From positions 1-36,490 of the forward strand of contig QKEV01000004.1 of assembly GCA_003252295.1 (NCBI GenBank): DNA of 36,490 bases, read 5' to 3'. The notes under the pieces are model-generated. The model was given only the letters and a program-made list of their open reading frames with translations, searched no databases and was not told the DNA's origin. This stretch comes from a bacterium (GTDB lineage: Bacteria > Patescibacteriota > Minisyncoccia > Phycocordibacterales > UBA12088). The position numbers and the translations under genes were made by a program. Shown here in pieces: positions 702 to 9,414 of this stretch (positions are counted from its first letter, which is position 1; the number at the start of each line of letters is the position of its first letter).

Positions 702-754
702 AATATAAGTGTATATCAATATAGATACATTACATTTATCGTAATGTGTAAAAA

Positions 755-776
755 CTGTCACTTTTGTCACTTTTTG
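755..776. promoter_or_regulatory. 22-nt motif CTGTCACTTTTGTCACTTTTTG (tandem GTCACTTTT), copy 1
   Basis: Identical 22-mer recurs at 4144-4165. Both copies lie in divergent intergenic regions. Function unknown (operator or promoter element, or part of a transcript). Confidence 0.5.
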
Positions 777-778
777 GT

Positions 779-1825
779 ATGCTGAATATCAACATGAATT
801 CCTTTCAAAAAAAATACAAGGTCCTTAAGGATATCAAAGAAAGAAAGAAATTGACTAAGAAAAAAGATCCCATCAACTTTACTCTCACTTCAAAAGTTGT
901 TGGTGCTAATACAGTTTCAAGTACCGACAGAAGAATGATCATAAGAAAATTGGAAGATGAAAAAGTTATTAAAATTGTTGCACCAACAGAAGAAGCTGAT
1001 TATGTAACTAGTGTTGACTTGCTGGACAGAGTTGACTCTATTTCCATAGAAACACTTCCAAAATTTATATTTATATGTGGATATTACTCACTAATTTCTA
1101 CCGTTCAACAAGTGTCAGGTTTTTTAAAAAACAAAAAATATCTTAATACTGGTTTTATCATTTTGCTTTTAATAACCTTATTATCTGCTGGGTATAAAAT
1201 ATCTGGAATACAAATTGGACCAATCAATCTTGAACCCTCTGAAGAAACACCTCCTCCTCTCTTTAAATACTCTTTTGATTCTAATGAAAAAGTTTTTAAG
1301 GTTACAGGCGATGAAAATGTAGACGTAATCAGTGCAGACTGGTTTATGATTGGTTACTGGGGATGGGAAGAAAACAAGCTCGATTTGAAAAAAGTTAACA
1401 ATCTAGATAAAGAGCTAAGTGTTATGGAAATCCGCGACGCATATGGTACTCCGTTAGTAAACATGCTTCAAAAATGGGGAAAAGATTTAATTGAATGTGA
1501 ATTTTTTAGACTTACTCAAGATGCTTTACCTGTAATGGTAACTACTATTTATGACACAACTGAAAAAACTGGTCTTGAAAACAAAGACCTACTAATCATT
1601 ACTCGAATAGATACCACCAGACCCAATCCAAAAATTTTTATAAGAAATGTCACAGATTACAGTATTGTTAACGATTTTTTTAATAAATATTCTTATCAAA
1701 TTATTGATGCTTCGGAACACATAAAAAATGACTATGAATATAGTAATGAAAACTATACAGGAGGTATTAGGTTAGATAACGGTAAATGTATGATGATTGA
1801 GAATCAACCACTTGGAGGATATTAA
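779..1825 (+). CDS. Hypothetical membrane protein: basic N-terminal region, two predicted TM helices, ~200-aa C-terminal domain
   Basis: ORF track 764-1825 starts at TTG; the first ATG is at 779. Hydrophobic stretches FIFICGYYSLISTV and GFIILLLITLLSAGY. No family recognised. Confidence 0.6.
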   Translation: MLNINMNSFQKKYKVLKDIKERKKLTKKKDPINFTLTSKVVGANTVSSTDRRMIIRKLEDEKVIKIVAPTEEADYVTSVDLLDRVDSISIETLPKFIFICGYYSLISTVQQVSGFLKNKKYLNTGFIILLLITLLSAGYKISGIQIGPINLEPSEETPPPLFKYSFDSNEKVFKVTGDENVDVISADWFMIGYWGWEENKLDLKKVNNLDKELSVMEIRDAYGTPLVNMLQKWGKDLIECEFFRLTQDALPVMVTTIYDTTEKTGLENKDLLIITRIDTTRPNPKIFIRNVTDYSIVNDFFNKYSYQIIDASEHIKNDYEYSNENYTGGIRLDNGKCMMIENQPLGGY

Positions 1826-1920
1826 TGCACGAGACGCGTCGTGAGGTTATTGAAAACTAGTTGAAAATAGCTATACCCTGCTTGGCAGACTGTGGTTCTA
1901 ACCCGAGACGGCCCGCCAAT
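1826..1920 (+). repeat. ~95-nt repeat element, copy 1 (candidate small structured RNA)
   Basis: Starts immediately after the TAA stop codon of the upstream ORF. Aligns with 4169-4262: a 52-nt left arm with 3 mismatches, a 15-nt divergent block, and a 27-nt right arm with 1 indel. Followed by an intrinsic terminator on the + strand. Confidence 0.6.
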
Positions 1921-1927
1921 TAGAGCT

Positions 1928-1970
1928 AGCACGAGACGCGTCAGAAATGACGCGTCTCTGCTCGTTTTGC
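1928..1970 (+). terminator. Rho-independent terminator
   Basis: AGCA(C)GAGACGCGTCA - GAAA - TGACGCGTCTCTGCT forms a 15-bp stem with one bulge, followed by CGTTTTGCTTT. Confidence 0.7.
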
Positions 1971-1984
1971 TTTATAATTTGTAT

Positions 1985-2149
1985 ATGAATGAAAAAGAAT
2001 ATTATTACAACCTGATCAAAGGTTGGCACTCAAAAGCTTCAAGTGATGATTATTTTGGAAAATTCATGTTTGAATACTTAGCATTTATCGCTTACCTTAA
2101 AACTCAGTGGAAAAATGAGCCTGAGTTAATAAGAATGACAGGAAACTGA
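1985..2149 (+). CDS. Small hypothetical protein (54 aa), possibly a gene fragment
   Basis: Internal ATG of track ORF 1892-2149; the upstream part of that ORF runs through the repeat and terminator. Sequence MNEKEYYYNLIKGWHSKASSDDYFGKFMFEYLAFIAYLK... No clear SD and no family assigned. Confidence 0.3.
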   Translation: MNEKEYYYNLIKGWHSKASSDDYFGKFMFEYLAFIAYLKTQWKNEPELIRMTGN

Positions 2150-2299
2150 AAGGTAGTGGTTGTTGATGTGTCTGCAGACACAATTCACTCCACTTTTATC
2201 TATTATACCATTCGGGTTTTTACACCTTCACTTTTTGAGAGTACAGTAAAAACACCGCACTACCTTACACTGTGGTATTTGACTTTAATCCAAAGGACT

Positions 2300-2878
2300 C
2301 TAATTTAGTTTATCGACAAGCATTCGCGCAAGTATGGCTATACGAGCTTCGTCTTTATGTTTTACAAGAGATTGTATGTATTTTTTATCACCCATCGAAA
2401 GATGAGATAGCATTATGCCAGATGACGTAAATGCAAGTATGCCCAAGATCTTGTTTTTTACATCCAAACTACGAGAATAGAGAGCGGTATGAATTGTTTT
2501 TTTATTCAGTAAATATTTACTAGCCACAACCTTGGGAAAGAGCGCACGAAGCGTAGCATTTGTAACTCGGTACTTATTTTTAGAAACATAACTCTCCAAT
2601 AATCTCCCTGACCACTCGTGATCCTTTGACCATCCAAGTAAACTGATTGCTCTTGGTAACTCTTTAGTGTTTTTGTACTTAGCGAGCAAAGACATACACA
2701 GTTCCTTATCTTTTGCTGTTTGAATAAAAGAGGTCTCATGTTTCTGCAAGATCATATCACTGGTACACCACCAATACCCCTTGTCGTATGTCATAACTAA
2801 ATCCACATTTAATTTTTGCTGGTATGTACCCAACAAAGAAACGTATTCTTTCAAGGACTGCATTACATCTTCATTCAT
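2300..2878 (-). CDS. Hypothetical protein (192 aa), downstream of the ATP-grasp gene
   Basis: ORF track. Same strand as the RiPP genes but separated from them by a hairpin. No recognisable motifs and no obvious SD. Confidence 0.5.
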   Translation of the reverse strand: MNEDVMQSLKEYVSLLGTYQQKLNVDLVMTYDKGYWWCTSDMILQKHETSFIQTAKDKELCMSLLAKYKNTKELPRAISLLGWSKDHEWSGRLLESYVSKNKYRVTNATLRALFPKVVASKYLLNKKTIHTALYSRSLDVKNKILGILAFTSSGIMLSHLSMGDKKYIQSLVKHKDEARIAILARMLVDKLN

Positions 2879-2895
2879 TGTGAGTATTGTATAGG

Positions 2896-2925
2896 AAAAT
2901 CGCGGTATTGAAACCGCGATTTTTT
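2896..2925. terminator. Hairpin with flanking A and T tracts (bidirectional terminator-like)
   Basis: AAAATCGCGGT - ATTGAA - ACCGCGATTTT, with a T5 run on the + strand. On the minus strand it follows the ATP-grasp stop codon at 2936. Confidence 0.5.
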
Positions 2926-2935
2926 ATGCCAACTC

Positions 2936-3295
2936 TTAAACCAAATGCCTAACAATGGTCTCACTAATCGGCATTCCAAGTTTAGTTTCCATCCATCCCC
3001 ATCCACCTTGTTGGTTCAGTTCAAGAAAGTAAAACTTGTCATTCACATCCTCAATGAGGTCAAAAACAGCAAATCGTAACTGCAATATCTTTAGCAATTT
3101 TCTACACCTCCCCATAACATCCGTTGGCAATCGATATGGTTTGGATGTCTCAGTTGCTTTTTCATTTTTCCTCCAATCAACATCATTCTTGCTTGCATCA
3201 CCAACACTACAAGCAAAAATTTCCTCATCAACCACAACTACACGTAGTTCCTGTTTTTTCTCGATTTCCTGTTGGAACAAAACAGGAGGATTCAT
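2936..3295 (-). CDS. ATP-grasp RiPP macrocyclase (MdnC/MvdD-like), C-terminal part
   Basis: PVLFQQEIEKKQELRVVVVDEEIFA, DWRK, PYRLP and YFLELNQQGGWGWMETKLGMPISETIVRHL match, from memory, the conserved blocks of microviridin-type ATP-grasp ligases (P.TFQE, ELR..VVG, DWRK, PY.LP, FLE.NP.G.W.E, PIS.AI). Confidence 0.8.
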   Translation of the reverse strand: MNPPVLFQQEIEKKQELRVVVVDEEIFACSVGDASKNDVDWRKNEKATETSKPYRLPTDVMGRCRKLLKILQLRFAVFDLIEDVNDKFYFLELNQQGGWGWMETKLGMPISETIVRHLV

Positions 3296-3852
3296 ATTTC
3301 CAAATGGTTGGCAGTTACCCTGTTTGTAAACAACACGGTATGTTTAGTGCCAGATGACACAATCCTCCCAACCTTTATGGCTTTTGTTATCACCCTCTTG
3401 TGTCTATCCCAAAACTTTCTAAGTTCCACAGAACTGTTAGTGACTATTGTTTCTGGCACCTCAAAACCAACACTCTGCGCAGTCCTGAGCTGCAGAAACT
3501 TTAGATCTGCATTATTAACCGCACTTGGGTAATTCATCCACAGCAATGGTGAGATATCACTTAACGAACCAAGTAGTGTGTCATGTAATTCCTGAATAGC
3601 GAATTGTTGGTATATGTCCTGAAGATTCGAAACAGAAAATGTACCAGCATGACGATACATTGTGTTGTATACGCCAGTAACACTATTTGCAACATCTGTA
3701 AGTTCTGAGGTTACGTGTGTTTGCCAAAGTATTTTATCTTCACCGTATGAATCGGCATCTATGGCAACATGGGGTATGTTTTTTTGAACACAGTAATTCT
3801 GAACAAGAAGTGCGTTGTTGTTGCCTCCTCGCTGAAACAAGACAAGTATCAT
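3292..3852 (-). CDS. ATP-grasp RiPP macrocyclase (MdnC/MvdD-like), N-terminal part
   Basis: KFLQLRTAQSVGFEVPETIVTNSSVELRKFW...VITKAIK...VLFTNRVT aligns with the central block of MdnC-type ligases. I place the start at ATG 3852 (MILVLFQRGG), which has GAGAGGT 4 nt upstream. The track start at 3891 lies inside a hairpin. The stop overlaps the next ORF's start codon as ATGA. Confidence 0.75.
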   Translation of the reverse strand: MILVLFQRGGNNNALLVQNYCVQKNIPHVAIDADSYGEDKILWQTHVTSELTDVANSVTGVYNTMYRHAGTFSVSNLQDIYQQFAIQELHDTLLGSLSDISPLLWMNYPSAVNNADLKFLQLRTAQSVGFEVPETIVTNSSVELRKFWDRHKRVITKAIKVGRIVSSGTKHTVLFTNRVTANHLEI

Positions 3853-3873
3853 AATGACCTCTCTTTTTAAAAC

Positions 3874-3900
3874 AGTCCCGCCATGAGTCATGGCGGGACT
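3874..3900 (-). promoter_or_regulatory. Intercistronic stem-loop between precursor ORF and ligase (attenuator, partial terminator or stabiliser)
   Basis: AGTCCCGCCATGA-G-TCATGGCGGGACT is a near-perfect 27-nt palindrome giving a ~11-12 bp GC-rich stem. On the minus-strand RNA it is followed by GUUUUAAAAAG. Confidence 0.55.
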
Positions 3901-3911
3901 TAGTCAAAATG

Positions 3912-4055
3912 TTAACCAATGCCAGGCAACGGCAAGGTGGGGTTGGGGCCTGCACAGCAGGTATCATCGTCGCATGTCTCAGTTTGGTCGTGTTCGATTT
4001 CCTCTGCAAAAATCATCTGAAAGGGCACATTACCGTTTTCGTTTTGTTCAGACAT
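3912..4055 (-). CDS. Candidate graspetide precursor peptide (47 aa), not in ORF track
   Basis: Own translation gives MSEQNENGNVPFQMIFAEEIEHDQTETCDDDTCCAGPNPTLPLPGIG*. SD AGAGGT lies 5 nt upstream of the ATG at 4055; the stop is TAA at 3914-3912. It sits on the same strand as the ATP-grasp ORF, 59 nt upstream of it. Confidence 0.6.
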   Translation of the reverse strand: MSEQNENGNVPFQMIFAEEIEHDQTETCDDDTCCAGPNPTLPLPGIG

Positions 4056-4095
4056 CTCATACCTCTTTTAGTTAAGTTTCAGTTGACTACTCTCG

Positions 4096-4140
4096 TCTAT
4101 AATCATGTATAACATAGTATTCAAAAAATACAACGGTCAA
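4096..4140 (-). promoter_or_regulatory. Candidate sigma70-type promoter(s) for the precursor/ligase operon
   Basis: Minus strand has TTGACC (4140-4135), an 18-nt spacer and TATGTT (4116-4111). Alternatively TTGAAT (4124-4119), a 17-nt spacer and TATAGA (4101-4096). Pattern match only. Confidence 0.3.
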
Positions 4141-4143
4141 AAT

Positions 4144-4165
4144 CTGTCACTTTTGTCACTTTTTG
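4144..4165. promoter_or_regulatory. 22-nt motif CTGTCACTTTTGTCACTTTTTG, copy 2
   Basis: Identical to 755-776. Lies just upstream of the candidate -35 of the minus-strand RiPP operon and 3 nt before repeat-element copy 2. Confidence 0.5.
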
Positions 4166-4168
4166 AGG

Positions 4169-4262
4169 TGCACGAGACGCGTCGTAAGGTTTTTGAAAAG
4201 TAGTTGAAAATAGCTATACCCCACCTGACGGGGCCTGGTTCTAACCCGAGACGGCCCGCAAT
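4169..4262 (+). repeat. ~95-nt repeat element, copy 2 (candidate small structured RNA)
   Basis: See 1826-1920. The variable block here is CCACCTGACGGGGCC (with the preceding CC it reads CCCC-ACCTGAC-GGGG), against CTGCTTGGCAGACTG in copy 1 (CTGC-TTG-GCAG). Confidence 0.6.
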
Positions 4263-4267
4263 CAACC

Positions 4268-4300
4268 AAAACCAGAGCGTTAGCTCTGGTTTTGTTGTTG
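4268..4300 (+). terminator. Rho-independent terminator
   Basis: AAAACCAGAGC - GTTA - GCTCTGGTTTT followed by GTTGTTGTT. Confidence 0.7.
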
Positions 4301-4455
4301 TTGCGAGAGAGTGTGGTGGTTCGAAAGCCGGAGCAGCGGGTCCCTGCTCGTAATGAAATGAAGAGTGGGGCTGCGAGGCGGGGTCGAAAGTGCTTAGTGT
4401 TTGAGAAGCTTTGCTTTGAATAACACTTAGCAACTCGTGACCGAATCCCACATAA
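4301..4455 (+). other. GC-rich, hairpin-dense non-coding stretch (candidate structured leader or ncRNA, class unknown)
   Basis: Hairpins GAGCAG-CGGGTCC-CTGCTC (4331-4349) and TGCTTAGTGTT...AACACTTAGCA (4391-4432, with an apical AAGC-TTT-GCTT). Possible closing pairs GTGGG (4365-4369) with CCCAC (4446-4450). Only implausible antisense ORFs cover this stretch. Confidence 0.3.
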
Positions 4456-4546
4456 TTTTATAGTAATCTCAGAGCGCAACATGACCACAGGTCGTGTGAG
4501 CAGTGAGATTCCCACCTTCAAAATTCCTCTGCTATACTGGGACTCA

Positions 4547-5302
4547 ATGAATACAAAAGTCACTCCTTTAGAAGGGGTAGAGTTTGATGTTTTGATTAGG
4601 AAAAGAATAAAAGACTTTTGGGGGTATGGTAGTTTAAAGTCTCCCGTGTGGTTTGTAGGTATGGAAGAAGGAGTAGGTGCAGGCACCCCAAGAAAAGACT
4701 TTCTCACTCGTTTTCGCCTTTCTGAAAACAAAGTGACAATCGATATGCGAGAAGGTATGGAAATTTACCCGGATCACATGCGCTGGTTTAAGGATGGAGC
4801 TCCTATTCAACCCACCTGGAAGTACCCTATTGCTCTCTATCTCTACCTGAAAAACAATATGATACCAATGAGAGAAGAGGTACGAGAACATCAAATACAC
4901 ACTCTTGCTGATAGTAAGAAAAAAGAAACTGCATGTATTGAACTCATGCCACTTCCTGCAAACTCAATAAAAGAAAACTCATGGGTCTACGGAAAACTCA
5001 ATGTTCCTAACTTGAGCACTCGCAAGGAATACATAGAAACGTATAAACCAAGACGAGTTGCGAAACTACAAAAACTCATCCAACAACATAAACCAAAGTT
5101 GGTTATCTTCTATTCCCTTACCTATCTGCCAGATTGGAAAAAAGTTATCGGAAAAGAAATAGAGGAAGTAACAAAAGGTATGTACTTCACTCAAACCAAA
5201 GACACCTCCTTCTGTGTTATTCCACAGAGTGTGTCGTTTGGTATGTCATACAAAAGACTGTATGCGTATGGTAAAAAGGTAAAAGATAAGATTATTTTAT
5301 AG
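4547..5302 (+). CDS. Hypothetical protein (251 aa)
   Basis: Track ORF 4481-5302. I prefer the internal ATG at 4547 (MNTKVTPLEG) because the upstream part overlaps the structured region. VWFVGMEEG and ELMPLPANS are faintly reminiscent of uracil-DNA-glycosylase-superfamily motifs; this is not a confident assignment. Confidence 0.55.
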   Translation: MNTKVTPLEGVEFDVLIRKRIKDFWGYGSLKSPVWFVGMEEGVGAGTPRKDFLTRFRLSENKVTIDMREGMEIYPDHMRWFKDGAPIQPTWKYPIALYLYLKNNMIPMREEVREHQIHTLADSKKKETACIELMPLPANSIKENSWVYGKLNVPNLSTRKEYIETYKPRRVAKLQKLIQQHKPKLVIFYSLTYLPDWKKVIGKEIEEVTKGMYFTQTKDTSFCVIPQSVSFGMSYKRLYAYGKKVKDKIIL

Positions 5303-5432
5303 ATATCAGTAAAAAATATATGGAGACCCCCAACCTCTTGCAGACTCACAAACAAATTGGTAGATAAACACACCGATATAGCACTTAAAAACATGATTTC
5401 ATTTGTAAAAATTACCTGTATACTTACCTACC

Positions 5433-6170
5433 ATGAAGAACAAAAAATATATTTCAGGTAGCGTACTCGTTCTAGCGATAATTGCGATAGTTGCGGGTAT
5501 ATTCTACGTACAAGAAAACAACAAAGTACAGATCGTTTCCCGTGATGATCCAACCGATATTGTTGTTGATTTTTACCAAACATGGCTGGATACCGTGCAG
5601 TCAACCAGTACTGATCCATACCAAGCAGGTCTTACAGACAACACACTCTTGAGTAAAGCATTGCAGAAAAAACTATCTCAAGCTCATGAAGCCAGCGACG
5701 TTGACCCGGTACTATGCCAGATTCCAACACCAAGACGGTTTAAGGTTGAAACTGCTTACGAGCAACCTGATGAGATACAAATGAATGTATTCTCCAAAGG
5801 ATCAGAAACGGTAAGTCAGTCAGTGGTTACCATACGACAACTTGACGAAGGTTGGTACATTGATGACATTTCCTGCATCAACGAATCTGACCCTAACACA
5901 GACCGTGAGTTTACCTTTGAACATGAAGGTGTCCTCTCAAAGGATCCCGCATTTGTGACCGATGCAGCATACTGGCACATCATATACATCCAGAACATTG
6001 TTCCTGACAGAGTTGTTCCCCTCTTCTTTGACACAGAAAGTACCTGTATCGACCAAGACAAGAAAGAATCAACTTGCGACCAAAACCAGTTCACCGAAAT
6101 GCAGCATGTCATTGTTCGTGGCAACATGACCGAAGCTGGACTTGAAGTACAGCAAGTTGAGACACTGTAA
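5433..6170 (+). CDS. Membrane-anchored hypothetical protein
   Basis: ORF track. N-terminal TM segment SVLVLAIIAIVAGIF followed by a soluble domain. Confidence 0.65.
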   Translation: MKNKKYISGSVLVLAIIAIVAGIFYVQENNKVQIVSRDDPTDIVVDFYQTWLDTVQSTSTDPYQAGLTDNTLLSKALQKKLSQAHEASDVDPVLCQIPTPRRFKVETAYEQPDEIQMNVFSKGSETVSQSVVTIRQLDEGWYIDDISCINESDPNTDREFTFEHEGVLSKDPAFVTDAAYWHIIYIQNIVPDRVVPLFFDTESTCIDQDKKESTCDQNQFTEMQHVIVRGNMTEAGLEVQQVETL

Positions 6171-6202
6171 CCATTTACCGAAGACTAACTCAGACAGAAA
6201 AC

Positions 6203-6235
6203 AAACCCCCAGGTCACATGTGACCTGGGGGTTTT
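6203..6235. terminator. Bidirectional terminator between convergent genes
   Basis: Perfect palindrome AAACCCCCAGGTCACA/TGTGACCTGGGGGTTT flanked by A and T runs. Confidence 0.75.
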
Positions 6236-8193: not shown

Positions 8194-9414
8194 ATGACCA
8201 AGGTAATAACTGATAAAGAAAAAATAGAAGAGCTACTGATGCGCTCTGTAGCAGAGATACTCCCTTCAAGGGATGGTCTTCGTGAGGCACTCTCATCTGG
8301 TAAGCAGCTCCGTATCTACATAGGTACAGACCCGACTGGTACTTCCCTACACCTCGGACACGCAACCAACTACATGATCCTTGAGAAGTTTCGCAGACTT
8401 GGACACGAGATTATTTTCCTCGTTGGTGACTTTACTGCACGCATTGGTGACCCGACCGACAAGAGCGACTCGGCACGAAAGCAGCTCACCCGTGAGCAGG
8501 TTGTCGAACATGTAAAGACTTGGATGGACCAGGTGCGACCGATTATCGACATAGACAACAAAGAGAACCCTGTTCGAGTCCTCTACAACCACGAGTGGCT
8601 CTCGAAGCTCACCTTTGAGGATGTTGTGAACCTCGCTTCAAACTTTACCGTGCAGCAGATGATAGAACGAGACATGTTCCAGGTGCGCATACAGGAAGGA
8701 AAACCACTCTACATGCACGAACTGTTCTACCCGCTCATGCAAGGATACGACTCTGTTGCTATGGATGTCGACATTGAAATGTGCGGTGCTGACCAGAAGT
8801 TCAATGCACTTGCGGGACGAACCCTTTTGAAGAAACTGAAGGATAAGGAAAAGTTTGTCTTCATTACTACTCTTCTCGAGAATCCGGTCACCAAAGAGAA
8901 GATGATGTCAAAATCAATGGGAACAGGTGTGTTCCTCGACTTTGACGCAGAGCACATGTACGGCGCCATCATGGCTCAAGCTGATGAAAACATGCGGCAG
9001 CTCTTCGTGGACTGCACATGGCTCACACTTGAAGAGATAGAGGAGAAGCTCAAGGGTGACAACCCTCGAGACACAAAAATGCAGCTTGCTCTTGAAATCA
9101 CCAAGATCTACCACGGAGAAGATGCAGCACAGAAAGCACAGAACGCTTTTGTGCAAACATTCCAAAAGAAAGAGGTGCCTGACGACATGCCAGACTTTAC
9201 CGTTACCGCAAAAATGACCCTTATAGACATCTTAACCAAGAGCGGTCTTGCAACTAGCAGGACCGATGCTCGACGCACCGTTGAACAAGGTGCTGTTAAA
9301 CTGAACGGTGAAAAGGTTGCTGTTGACGCACTTGAACAGACTGTAAACCTCAAAGATGGTGAGGTGGTCCTCCAGAAAGGTAAACGCTACTTCCTTCGAC
9401 TTTTACAAAAGTAA
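8194..9414 (+). CDS. tyrS: Tyrosine--tRNA ligase
   Basis: GTDPTGTSLHLGH (HIGH), KMMSKSMG (KMSKS) and a C-terminal S4-like domain (RTDARRTVEQGAVKLNGEKV). Confidence 0.9.
   Translation: MTKVITDKEKIEELLMRSVAEILPSRDGLREALSSGKQLRIYIGTDPTGTSLHLGHATNYMILEKFRRLGHEIIFLVGDFTARIGDPTDKSDSARKQLTREQVVEHVKTWMDQVRPIIDIDNKENPVRVLYNHEWLSKLTFEDVVNLASNFTVQQMIERDMFQVRIQEGKPLYMHELFYPLMQGYDSVAMDVDIEMCGADQKFNALAGRTLLKKLKDKEKFVFITTLLENPVTKEKMMSKSMGTGVFLDFDAEHMYGAIMAQADENMRQLFVDCTWLTLEEIEEKLKGDNPRDTKMQLALEITKIYHGEDAAQKAQNAFVQTFQKKEVPDDMPDFTVTAKMTLIDILTKSGLATSRTDARRTVEQGAVKLNGEKVAVDALEQTVNLKDGEVVLQKGKRYFLRLLQK

Follow-up and report, generated by a model that had tools for sequence, protein, structure and literature searches.

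A non-coding element that may mark cassette ends in phage-satellite-like islands of Patescibacteria

Results

Two copies of a direct repeat bracket a RiPP locus

The window, i.e., the whole stretch of 36,490 nucleotides of contig QKEV01000004.1 (assembly GCA_003252295.1) analyzed here, is ordinary chromosome outside an island of 6 kb, the features of which are listed in Table 1. Two units lie on the + strand of this island. Unit 1 is composed of a 20-nt motif, an ORF, a ~95-nt element, and a terminator, in this order, unit 2 of the motif, the element, and a terminator, and the RiPP genes are located between the two units. The ORF of unit 1 has homologs (P0002-P0007) with about 55% identity, and in its exact form 794-1825 it is known from a single contig. 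The palindrome preceding the first motif is a putative operator. A recombinase cannot be recognized anywhere in the island, including the segment 1921-4168, and no integrase family is found among the window ORFs between positions 1 and 7340. For the ORF 3-701 on the - strand, an XRE/ImmA identity had been guessed by eye and was not confirmed by Pfam. Only one other contig, the independent Logan contig L001, contains DNA of the window; the arrangement is the same there, and copy 2 of the element is identical.

Table 1. Features of the island, with positions in the window.
Feature	Position	Strand	Remarks
Palindrome CATTAC-N7-GTAATG	728..746	+	directly 5' of motif copy 1; counterpart of GTTACA-N6-TGTAAC upstream of the motif in relatives; putative operator
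Motif copy 1, TGTCACTTTTGTCACTTTTT	756..775	+	exact match; two direct TGTCAC half-sites; promoter/operator-like head of unit 1
Cargo ORF of unit 1	779..1825	+	348 aa from ATG 779; no Pfam family; starts 3 nt past the motif; stop abuts element copy 1
Element copy 1	1826..1920	+	box R1 1827-1840; divergent block 1878-1892; GGTTCTAAC 1894-1902; box R2 1901-1912
Box R3, third exact GCACGAGACGCGTC	1929..1942	+	identical to the element's initial 14 nt; also the 5' arm of terminator 1
Terminator 1	1933..1968 (hairpin 1933-1958)	+	intrinsic terminator-like hairpin and T-run after copy 1; 11 pairs, 7 GC
Cargo between the copies	1985..4055	- (1985-2149 on +)	
54-aa ORF fragment	1985-2149	+	
192-aa ORF	2300-2878	-	
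RimK-type ATP-grasp	3292-3891 and 2936-3295	-	split by a 13-nt deletion
Precursor-like peptide	3912-4055	-	47 aa
Motif copy 2, TGTCACTTTTGTCACTTTTT	4145..4164	+	directly 5' of element copy 2
Element copy 2	4169..4262	+	box R1 4170-4183; divergent block 4221-4235; box R2 4244-4255
Terminator 2	4267..4294	+	intrinsic terminator-like hairpin after copy 2; 12 pairs

A repeat search of the window identifies the two copies as an ungapped direct repeat of 91 nt with 87% identity (1826-1916 and 4169-4259). On direct reading, the left arms differ at 3 of 52 positions and the right arms are identical over 27 nt, after which copy 1 has one extra C, while the equal-length blocks between the arms, CTGCTTGGCAGACTG and CCACCTGACGGGGCC, match at 6 of 15 positions. 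Within the window each arm is unique to the two copies, the chance expectation being 0-0.08 matches. Nine of the 12 mismatches between the copies fall into the one 15-nt block (p ~1e-6 for a fixed block and ~9e-5 after a scan of all blocks). CGAGACG is present in the left and in the right arm. Thus the arms, the divergent core, the recurrent CGAGACG, and the terminator after each copy on the + strand are all as the original prediction had described them. The 20-mer TGTCACTTTTGTCACTTTTT is a second repeat, which that prediction had missed and which became the key to finding the family. In addition, the 14-mer GCACGAGACGCGTC occurs exactly three times in the window, at 1827, 1929, and 4170; the 2.2 kb of cargo between the copies at 1826 and 4169 is bordered more closely by the exact 14-mers at 1929 and 4170.

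The original prediction could assign the copies to no known RNA family, and this holds: Rfam gives no match in the whole window at the gathering threshold and, at E<=10, nothing overlapping either copy and no match to the tRNA model in the window, in which ARAGORN likewise predicts 0 tRNA or tmRNA genes. A larger RNA that would begin with the element and include the GC-rich segment 4296-4460 was considered and discarded, as this has no Rfam match and a single weak homolog (L194).

The element belongs to a widespread non-coding family

Further copies, the existence of which the original prediction had left to be checked, are found widely. Searches with nhmmer identify 78 homologous elements of ~100 nt in 61 loci, almost all of them from MAGs of Patescibacteria; since the loci were collected by means of the exact 20-mer, this sample is biased toward motif-bearing copies. 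Copy 1 matches the family profile with E=3.5e-22 over 1823-1927 and copy 2 with E=3e-19, and the region of box R3 gives a weak match at 1927-1943. BLAST detects homologs in L036, L050, L071, and L063. Exact-pattern scans with pieces of the element yielded no match in genome contigs or viral contigs and only a chance match inside a CDS in metagenome contigs, because the arms vary too much to be matched exactly. In 25 related genomes, the element does not occur around the TyrRS gene. Literature searches on CPR prophages with serine recombinases and on LOOT RNA revealed no description of the element, which is an uncatalogued, widespread non-coding family.

The 20-mer itself occurs in more than 119 genome stretches and in three IMG/VR viral contigs. 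At 44 of 127 sites the element follows the motif within 40 nt, and at 12 more sites ORFs intervene; an ATG lies within 3 nt of the motif at 11 sites, and 34 of the 57 family motif sites have a palindrome of the kind found at 728-746 not more than 50 nt upstream. The usual order consists of the motif, optional ORFs, the element, and often a terminator. Two to four co-oriented copies with a spacing of 0.5-5.6 kb are encountered in 11 of the 61 loci, and copies inside one locus are usually mutual nearest relatives. Of 28 copies lacking the motif, 27 follow an ORF of the same orientation, the median distance being 15 nt. Terminator-like hairpins starting within 30 nt downstream accompany 16 of 64 elements versus 10 of 384 random segments. 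The orientation of the element is fixed, its boundaries are sharp at a length of ~100 nt, and its nucleotide conservation is high between genomes with proteins of 40-60% identity. Transcription of the + strand is plausible given the fixed orientation, the promoter-like motif upstream, and the excess of terminators downstream.

Genes recurring in the neighborhood of the family code for a recombinase (Resolvase+Recombinase+Zn_ribbon_recom), which in the relatives is of the large serine type, for Terminase_6C, for ParB_N+N6_N4_Mtase, and for LexA_DNA_bind+Peptidase_S24, and the defense cargo includes Cap15 with a weak SMODS match. Islands with the element resemble phage satellites. In 18 family loci, the only Rfam matches are LOOT RNA (RF03000) and tRNAs, located away from the element. 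LOOT RNA, for which the searched literature offers no description of a function, is absent from the window; in related islands it lies upstream of homologs of the window gene 4547-5302 and adjoins the serine recombinase. Although both are non-coding and come from one island family, LOOT RNA differs from the element in sequence and in having a well-supported fold; LOOT matches occur only in the related islands and not at the element of the window, which is not a LOOT RNA.

The element lacks a conserved RNA fold

For 62 family members RNAalifold finds 0 consensus pairs, and for the 20 closest members only two helices of 3-4 bp (7 pairs, -2.3 kcal/mol). The mean folding z-score of the whole element is -0.41 and that of the core -0.55; for the window copies, as DNA or RNA, z is about 0. 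Each core had been predicted to form its own hairpin, and the 4-bp hairpins do exist; however, they are at chance level, as composition-matched shuffles also form Watson-Crick stems of at least 4 bp, in 19% of cases for the core of copy 1 and in 28% for that of copy 2, and they are not a trait of the family, in which 8 of 62 members possess such a core stem versus 11.9 +/- 3.2 in shuffles. With a fixed register, pairing of the core hairpin is no better than in column shuffles, which is equally true for a 5' hairpin. A T-arm-like helix pairs in 58% of the cells, as do shuffles, and the long-range helix CGUC..GGUUA/UAACC..GACG from the MFE fold of the window pairs in 49%, below the shuffle mean. 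A palindrome inside box R1 (columns 20/33) was rejected as well (Fisher p=0.09).

Covariation, which had been suggested as a check especially for the core, provides no Watson-Crick signal: none of the leading MI pairs has a consistent Watson-Crick pattern, and the strongest covarying column pair is of the same-base type and connects the two boxes (AA 19, GG 17, TT 8). Accordingly, box R1 matches its own R2 at 7.77 of 12 positions as compared to 6.52 +/- 0.15 with shuffled partners (maximum 7.02 in 2000 shuffles). The information content of the core is 1.12 bits in its first half, which ranks family-wide among the better conserved parts of the element, and 0.45 bits in its second half. The least conserved part family-wide is the AU-rich middle of the left arm (0.47 bits), yet it is near-identical between the window copies. 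The family shows neither the variable block between fixed flanks that characterizes diversity-generating or specificity-swapping modules nor the conserved structure with compensatory changes of structured sRNAs or riboswitches. Within 4-8 kb, the longest antisense match is 9.9 nt versus 9.4 nt for shuffled sequences, i.e., there is no excess of local targets. The element has no conserved RNA fold and does not represent a structured RNA with an exchangeable stem. Of the originally proposed small transcribed RNA family with a swappable specificity or stem module, the family thus stands and the swappable module is without support.

Discussion

We consider it about as probable as all other explanations together, i.e., with a probability of roughly one half, that the two copies are paralogous ~100-nt non-coding elements marking the ends of cargo cassettes in phage-satellite-like mobile islands of Patescibacteria (CPR). 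According to this preferred interpretation, the RiPP cargo is enclosed by two cassette-boundary modules in tandem. A canonical unit consists of a putative repressor-type operator/promoter (palindrome and TGTCACTTTTGTCACTTTTT), none to a few cargo ORFs, the element, and often an intrinsic terminator, and such units, together with bare cassettes of ORF(s) and element, form co-oriented tandem arrays. The element would be read through as the 3' end of the transcript of each unit, and an island-encoded factor might recognize its conserved sequence, above all its two direct, co-varying boxes GCnCGAGnnG, rather than a fold. The shared ends could provide homology or a site for adding, duplicating, or swapping cassettes. 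The alternative of the original prediction, direct repeats remaining after the 2.3-kb segment with the RiPP genes had inserted or recombined, comes closer to these comparative data than its RNA module; however, the repeats are best read as putative functional modules borne by the units themselves and not as scars of a single event. Several observations count against a cassette boundary: the 6-kb island of the window is devoid of a recognizable recombinase, an inverted box that could form a crossover palindrome after the element is near background frequency, only 11 of the 61 loci have more than one copy within 8 kb, the divergence of the window copies (9 of 15 positions) is clustered in the core, and no empty-site allele or circular junction was found, for which reason no recombination event is documented.

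Possible, though clearly less probable, is that the element is a stand-alone sRNA gene of the island, coding for a largely unstructured base-pairing or protein-binding RNA that acts in trans or in cis. The GCnCGAG boxes would then be duplicated seed or binding motifs, the window copies paralogous sRNA genes, and copies after ORFs 3'-UTR-derived. The promoter-like motif directly upstream in 44 cases and the tenfold excess of downstream terminators fit a plain sRNA gene equally well; sharp boundaries, the length of ~100 nt, strict co-orientation with upstream genes, and the high nucleotide conservation are in line with it, and duplicated seeds would likewise produce same-base covariation. In contrast, the missing fold and Watson-Crick covariation and the lack of complementary targets in the vicinity argue against an sRNA, and repetition after successive unrelated cargo genes would not be expected for such a gene.

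It seems unlikely that the element is an attachment-site module, in which the site-specific recombinase of the islands would use an attB-like landing pad resembling a tRNA 3' end; each incoming island would bring its own copy, and an integrated, by now non-autonomous island of 2.3 kb would have the window copies as its attL/attR-type repeats. Direct repeats do flank the accessory-gene segment, and in L140, L143, L226, L129, and L186 large serine recombinase genes adjoin motif and element. L037 has a genuine tRNA-Gln in place of the element, 2 nt before CTCGTGC-TA-GCACGAG and an element-like 5' fragment; the last 25 nt of the element agree with the 3' end of tRNA-Gln at 15 of 25 positions with equal spacing to the terminal CCA, and in L163 a tRNA 3' fragment follows the element. 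However, large serine recombinases need only 2 bp of crossover identity and are not known to make 90-nt repeats, neither ARAGORN nor the Rfam tRNA model recognizes the element as a tRNA, and the junction sequences differ after copy 2, L140, and L037. Also, the island of the window has no recombinase, and neither an empty site nor a circular form of it was found. A crossover palindrome is rare: an inverted box directly after the element, as in CTCGTGC TA GCACGAG of L037, occurs in about 4 of 54 elements, near background, and a palindromic site of inverted box and box is clear in L037 and L164 and has one mismatch in L145, L163, L180, and L194, with no family-wide enrichment.

Stacked islands have known analogs, SCCmec-type composite islands among them. 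In Prochlorococcus, tycheposons are tandem integrative islands flanked by partial tRNA repeats (bioRxiv 10.1101/2020.12.28.424599), a precedent for an attachment site. Similar to the islands described here, PICI-like or cargo elements are stacked at one site with direct repeats between units, some units lack an own recombinase, and the cargo is adaptive or defensive. In contrast to tycheposons, the repeat is neither a piece of a tRNA nor a core of 15 bp but a complete ~100-nt element that has a promoter-like motif of its own, and its likeness to the 3' end of tRNA-Gln is only loose. The units are also reminiscent of phage morons (promoter-gene-terminator insertions in the concept of Hendrix and Juhala), which are likewise self-contained, carry accessory genes in a mobile genome, and have a promoter and a terminator at opposite ends; however, we know of no conserved 100-nt non-coding element common to moron units and genomes.

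Integrons are similar in that a head promoter is followed by co-oriented cassettes with accessory or defense cargo, each closing just past the ORF stop with a site of ~100 nt with conserved ends and a variable middle, and co-oriented arrays with a site close after each ORF are indeed observed (11 loci; 27/28; median 15 nt). Unlike attC, however, the element has direct-repeat boxes instead of inverted R''/R' core sites; inspection of either strand of the window copies reveals no RYYYAAC/GTTRRRY core motifs, and the element has no attC-type arm complementarity or hairpin-forming potential. Furthermore, the associated recombinase is a large serine recombinase and not an IntI tyrosine recombinase, and many units have their own promoter and terminator. 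A further, improbable reading is that element and head motif constitute a Patescibacteria-specific, integron-like capture system without attC hairpins or tyrosine integrase. Cassettes would be captured beside the ~100-nt site, both direct boxes of which co-vary and would match that of the cassette junction; recognition would be by the serine recombinase, by another island protein, or by the transcript of the element itself as a bridge-RNA-like guide.

Even less credible is a cos/pac-like packaging site or a replication origin of the satellite-like islands, with the boxes and TGTCAC repeats as protein-binding iterons. Genes for the large subunit of a terminase and for an HTH protein are indeed present in the islands, the multiple direct boxes co-vary by same bases, and TGTCAC/TGTAAC half-sites are direct and inverted; yet the element is not adjacent to terminase genes, no replication initiator is identified beside it, and several copies per array, also right after unrelated cargo ORFs, are unexpected for a single cos or ori. 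The structured small RNA with a swappable central 15-nt hairpin is largely refuted, for although both cores are able to form a 4-bp hairpin and the mismatches are significantly clustered there, such stems form in 19-28% of shuffles and in fewer members of the family (8 of 62) than expected (11.9), pairing in a fixed register equals that of shuffles, a consensus structure is lacking, and conservation across the family extends to the first half of the core.

The mobile elements of Patescibacteria, bacteria with tiny genomes, are poorly characterized. The present data connect islands with serine recombinase, terminase, ParB-methylase, and LexA-like genes, with defense cargo, and, in the case of the window, with a RiPP locus to a conserved non-coding element and to a head motif of 20 nt that is nearly invariant. 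In practice, this module can serve to locate cargo hotspots in CPR metagenomes, and the islands give LOOT RNA a genomic context. If the element is a recombination site, the architecture of this site would be new among cassette systems; if the element is an RNA, it would represent a new, widespread RNA class encoded by mobile elements.

Sequence and Setting of the Repeat

A search of the window for repeats recovers a direct, ungapped repeat of 91 nt with 87% identity (1826–1916 vs. 4169–4259), and every detail of arms, core, indel, CGAGACG heptamers and terminators in the original prediction holds on reading of the sequence. The left arms differ at 3 of 52 positions, the right arms are identical over 27 nt with a 1-nt indel thereafter, CGAGACG is present in left and right arms alike, and the 15-nt cores between them agree at 6 positions. 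Nine of the 12 mismatches fall into this single 15-nt block, a clustering far above chance (p ~9e-5 after scanning). The window holds no further copy of either arm, ~0 being expected by chance. Two features had been overlooked: the 14-mer with which the element begins, GCACGAGACGCGTC, occurs a third time in the first terminator, and the 20-mer TGTCACTTTTGTCACTTTTT, here called the motif, occurs twice.

Features of the window and of related loci (L numbers)
Locus	Position	Feature	Remark
Window	756–775	motif	directly 5' of ORF 779–1825
Window	779–1825	ORF	end is the exact start of copy 1
Window	1826–1920	element, copy 1	
Window	1878–1892	core of copy 1	
Window	1929–1942	third occurrence of GCACGAGACGCGTC	5' arm of terminator 1
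Window	1933–1958	terminator-like hairpin after copy 1	intrinsic type
Window	1985–2149	54-aa ORF	weak Pfam match, under cut-off
Window	2936–3295, 3292–3891	two parts of the ATP-grasp gene	
Window	4145–4164	motif	directly 5' of copy 2
Window	4169–4262	element, copy 2	
Window	4221–4235	core of copy 2	
Window	4267–4294	terminator-like hairpin after copy 2	intrinsic type; differs from that of copy 1
Window	4296–4460	non-coding, G-skewed region	GC up to 58%
Window	4547–5302	gene for a 251-aa protein	4481–5302 in the ORF list
Window	8194–9414	TyrRS gene	
L036	3055–3168	LOOT RNA (RF03000)	directly 5' of homologue of gene 4547–5302
L037	5824–5950	LOOT RNA (RF03000)	directly 5' of homologue of gene 4547–5302
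L040	5811–5937	LOOT RNA (RF03000)	directly 5' of homologue of gene 4547–5302
L193	146–258	LOOT RNA (RF03000)	motif-bearing island locus
L237	365–497	LOOT RNA (RF03000)	motif-bearing island locus
L140	3492–3605	LOOT RNA (RF03000)	motif-bearing island locus
L154	5578–7103	cargo pair	
L162	4557–6054	cargo pair	

The TyrRS is 60–77% identical to those of Patescibacteria/Parcubacteria MAGs, and the region from ~8 to 36 kb is ordinary chromosome encoding LeuRS, ATP synthase, GAPDH, and RNase J. The first ~6 kb consist of accessory genes with few Pfam matches and include the RiPP locus of the original prediction, with its 47-aa peptide and RimK-type ATP-grasp. Window positions 2755–6232, copy 2 included, recur with 99.6% identity in L001, an independent Logan contig. 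This contig contains 13 nt (542–554) that are missing from the window at 3292–3296, and the deletion cuts the ATP-grasp gene, which encodes 309 aa in L001, into two ORFs; the RiPP maturase of the window is therefore likely to be a pseudogene or to represent a strain variant. The 54-aa ORF appears to be the remaining N-terminal part of a longer gene, which fits decay within an island.

A Family of Motif and Element Units

Exact-pattern scans with pieces of the element identified no relatives in genome, viral, and metagenome collections; the first relatives came from loci retrieved via neighboring proteins. With BLAST, the end of L036 aligned to motif plus element (102 nt, 76%), L050, L071, and L063 gave partial copies, and all four loci contain the exact 20-mer. 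This 20-mer is present in more than 119 genome stretches, the majority from Patescibacteria MAGs, and in three IMG/VR viral contigs. In most CPR loci the same ~100-nt sequence lies 3' of the motif, with the consensus GCnCGAGAnGCGTCG..AAAA..CCTTACAGGGCTTGAC..ACGGTTCTAGCnCGAGnnGGCCnGC, and a profile search (E < 1e-3) yielded 78 matches in 61 loci. In the Bacteroidota Dysgonomonas and Prevotella (L125, L128, L132, L134, L135, L141, L149, L152, L155, L156, L158, L161, and others), the exact motif forms a dispersed multi-copy repeat from which the ~100-nt element is absent, and a AAAGTAACA-like sequence again precedes the 20-mer.

Among 127 exact motif sites, the element follows within 40 nt 3' at 44, and one or more ORFs are interposed at 12. 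At element-associated motif sites, an ATG lies at most 3 nt from the motif in 11 of 57 cases (position 779 in the window), and a palindrome of the GTTACA-N-TGTAAC type just 5' of it in 34. Elements lacking a motif begin a median of 15 nt after the stop of an upstream ORF, and in 27 of 28 cases this ORF has the same orientation. A strict terminator-like hairpin starts within 30 nt after 16 of 64 elements, vs. 10 of 384 random segments, and 11 loci harbor two to four co-oriented elements spaced 0.5–5.6 kb apart. The unit therefore consists of motif, optional cargo, element, and often a terminator, and such units, or cassettes of ORF(s) plus element, are stacked in tandem. Two such units are present in the window, and the RiPP genes lie between them. 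Homologues of ORF 779–1825 in L028, L034, and L035 are followed (at 3681–4020, 1003–1200, and 1032–1090, respectively) by TCGCC(GCC)AA and then, against an AT-rich background, by GC-rich inserts of very different lengths that have no Rfam match.

RNA Fold, Core, and Boxes

The proposal of a small RNA with a self-complementary, swappable core found no support in the family-wide analysis. RNAalifold predicted no pairs for 62 aligned members and, for the 20 closest, just two helices of 3–4 bp (−2.3 kcal/mol), essentially without compensatory change. The element had a mean folding z of −0.41 and its core segment one of −0.55; the two window copies alone (z −0.13 and +0.12) fold no better than shuffles, the good z of longer stretches being due to the terminators. 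Four candidate helices (a long-range helix of the window, the core hairpin, a T-arm-like helix, and 5' or alternative hairpins) all pair in 49–61% of cells, like column shuffles. Core stems of at least 4 bp exist in 8 of 62 members vs. 11.9 ± 3.2 in shuffles, and shuffling the cores of copies 1 and 2 yields one in 19–28% of cases. A swappable core is therefore unsupported. Across the family, conservation is good in the first half of the core (1.12 bits), poor in its second half (0.45 bits), and lowest in the AU-rich middle part of the left arm. Since copies 1 and 2 are near-identical in just this part, the clustered core divergence in this genome looks like a replaced patch.

The Rfam search suggested in the original prediction was carried out and revealed no known family: Rfam 15 gave no match at gathering score anywhere in the window and none overlapping either copy at E ≤ 10, and ARAGORN detected no tRNA or tmRNA in the window. 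That the element is a plain small RNA gene, a reading to be weighed with its probable transcription and the terminators on one side and these fold results on the other, is second in probability to that of a boundary or anchor.

Among aligned members, covariation is strongest between the two CGAGACG-containing boxes and is of the same-base type, for example in columns 25/103 (AA 19, GG 17, TT 8) and 22/100 (GG 47, AA 8). A box agrees with its own partner at 7.77 of 12 positions vs. 6.52 ± 0.15 for shuffled partners, a value reached in 0 of 2000 shuffles; kinship among the sequences can inflate such covariation. Whole-box switches, to GCTCAAAG, GCTCTAG, or GACYGAG, affect both boxes together. 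This covariation points to recognition of the box sequence by a common partner (protein or shared complementary sequence) and not to a helix between the boxes.

Islands and Their Cargo

Clustered ORFs of the 61 loci, assigned by Pfam, include ParB_N+N6_N4_Mtase (19 loci), a small HTH protein with a weak AlpA match (14 loci), and, in 10 loci each, a Terminase_6C protein, a large serine recombinase, and a LexA_DNA_bind+Peptidase_S24 repressor. The usual gene order is recombinase, terminase, HTH, ParB-methylase | LexA-like, cargo, motif, element. From these recurrent neighbors it follows that the islands are integrative and phage-satellite-like or small prophage-like. In L154 and L162, a nucleotidyltransferase (weak SMODS match) and a Cap15-type effector, consisting of TM helices and a cyclic-dinucleotide receptor domain, are encoded between the LexA-like repressor gene and motif plus element, and this pair shows that the position is a defense-gene hotspot.

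In such islands, homologues of gene 4547–5302 adjoin the recombinase behind LOOT RNA, and a large serine recombinase lies beside LOOT in L036, L037, L140, and L237. Just 5' of the start codon, a LOOT helix arm recurs in a form that shows compensatory changes (CCCGCTAGAG vs. CCTAGTAGAG), which suggests a cis-regulatory switch. The window has neither recombinase nor LOOT and carries a decayed or non-autonomous stretch of such an island. For the gene listed as 4481–5302, the database protein begins at the second ATG, 4547, from where homologues align, and the non-coding region upstream is therefore ~250 nt long. Part of it, between terminator 2 and the gene, occupies the place of LOOT in related islands; this part folds better than shuffles (z −3.7), has no Rfam match and has a single weak homologue, 3' of the element in L194 (65% over 119 nt).

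Origin and Best-Supported Reading

Copies in one locus are mutually closest in 11 of 20 cases (mean identity 0.72 vs. 0.57). The window pair reaches 0.87, the next relative, L036, being at 0.68, and L233 and L124 keep two distinct, orthologous element types. Exact 14-mers at 1929 and 4170 flank the 2.2-kb cargo, compatible with recombination in the 5' box of the element; neither an empty-site allele nor a recombinase was found as proof of it. A palindrome of inverted box plus box, directly after the element or, in L037, after a real tRNA-Gln, had suggested a serine-recombinase crossover site and is present in a handful of loci only. In L037 (2490–2600), the perfect palindrome CTCGTGC-TA-GCACGAG starts 2 nt after tRNA-Gln(UUG) and is succeeded by GCACGAGACGCTTAGAAAT, almost equal to window 1929–1948; an island may thus join a tRNA gene here. 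The last 25 nt of the element resemble the tRNA-Gln 3' end at 15 positions, at the same distance to CCA, a lead to an attB-mimic origin and not demonstrated kinship. A true att site is improbable, and each remaining reading is less probable still.

The insertion or recombination alternative of the original prediction comes nearer the mark than its swappable-stem RNA, and the repeat itself is confirmed. Integron cassette arrays share the layout described here and differ in site and enzyme; together with tRNA-flanked tandem islands such as tycheposons (bioRxiv 10.1101/2020.12.28.424599), they are among the closest analogues. The element is probably transcribed and probably recognized via its sequence; it may act as a DNA site, whether recombination anchor or landing pad, or as an RNA, and the reading as a boundary or anchor is given a probability of about 0.5. 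In the best-supported interpretation, it is a new module that is widespread in mobile islands of the CPR and marks the boundaries of their cargo cassettes.
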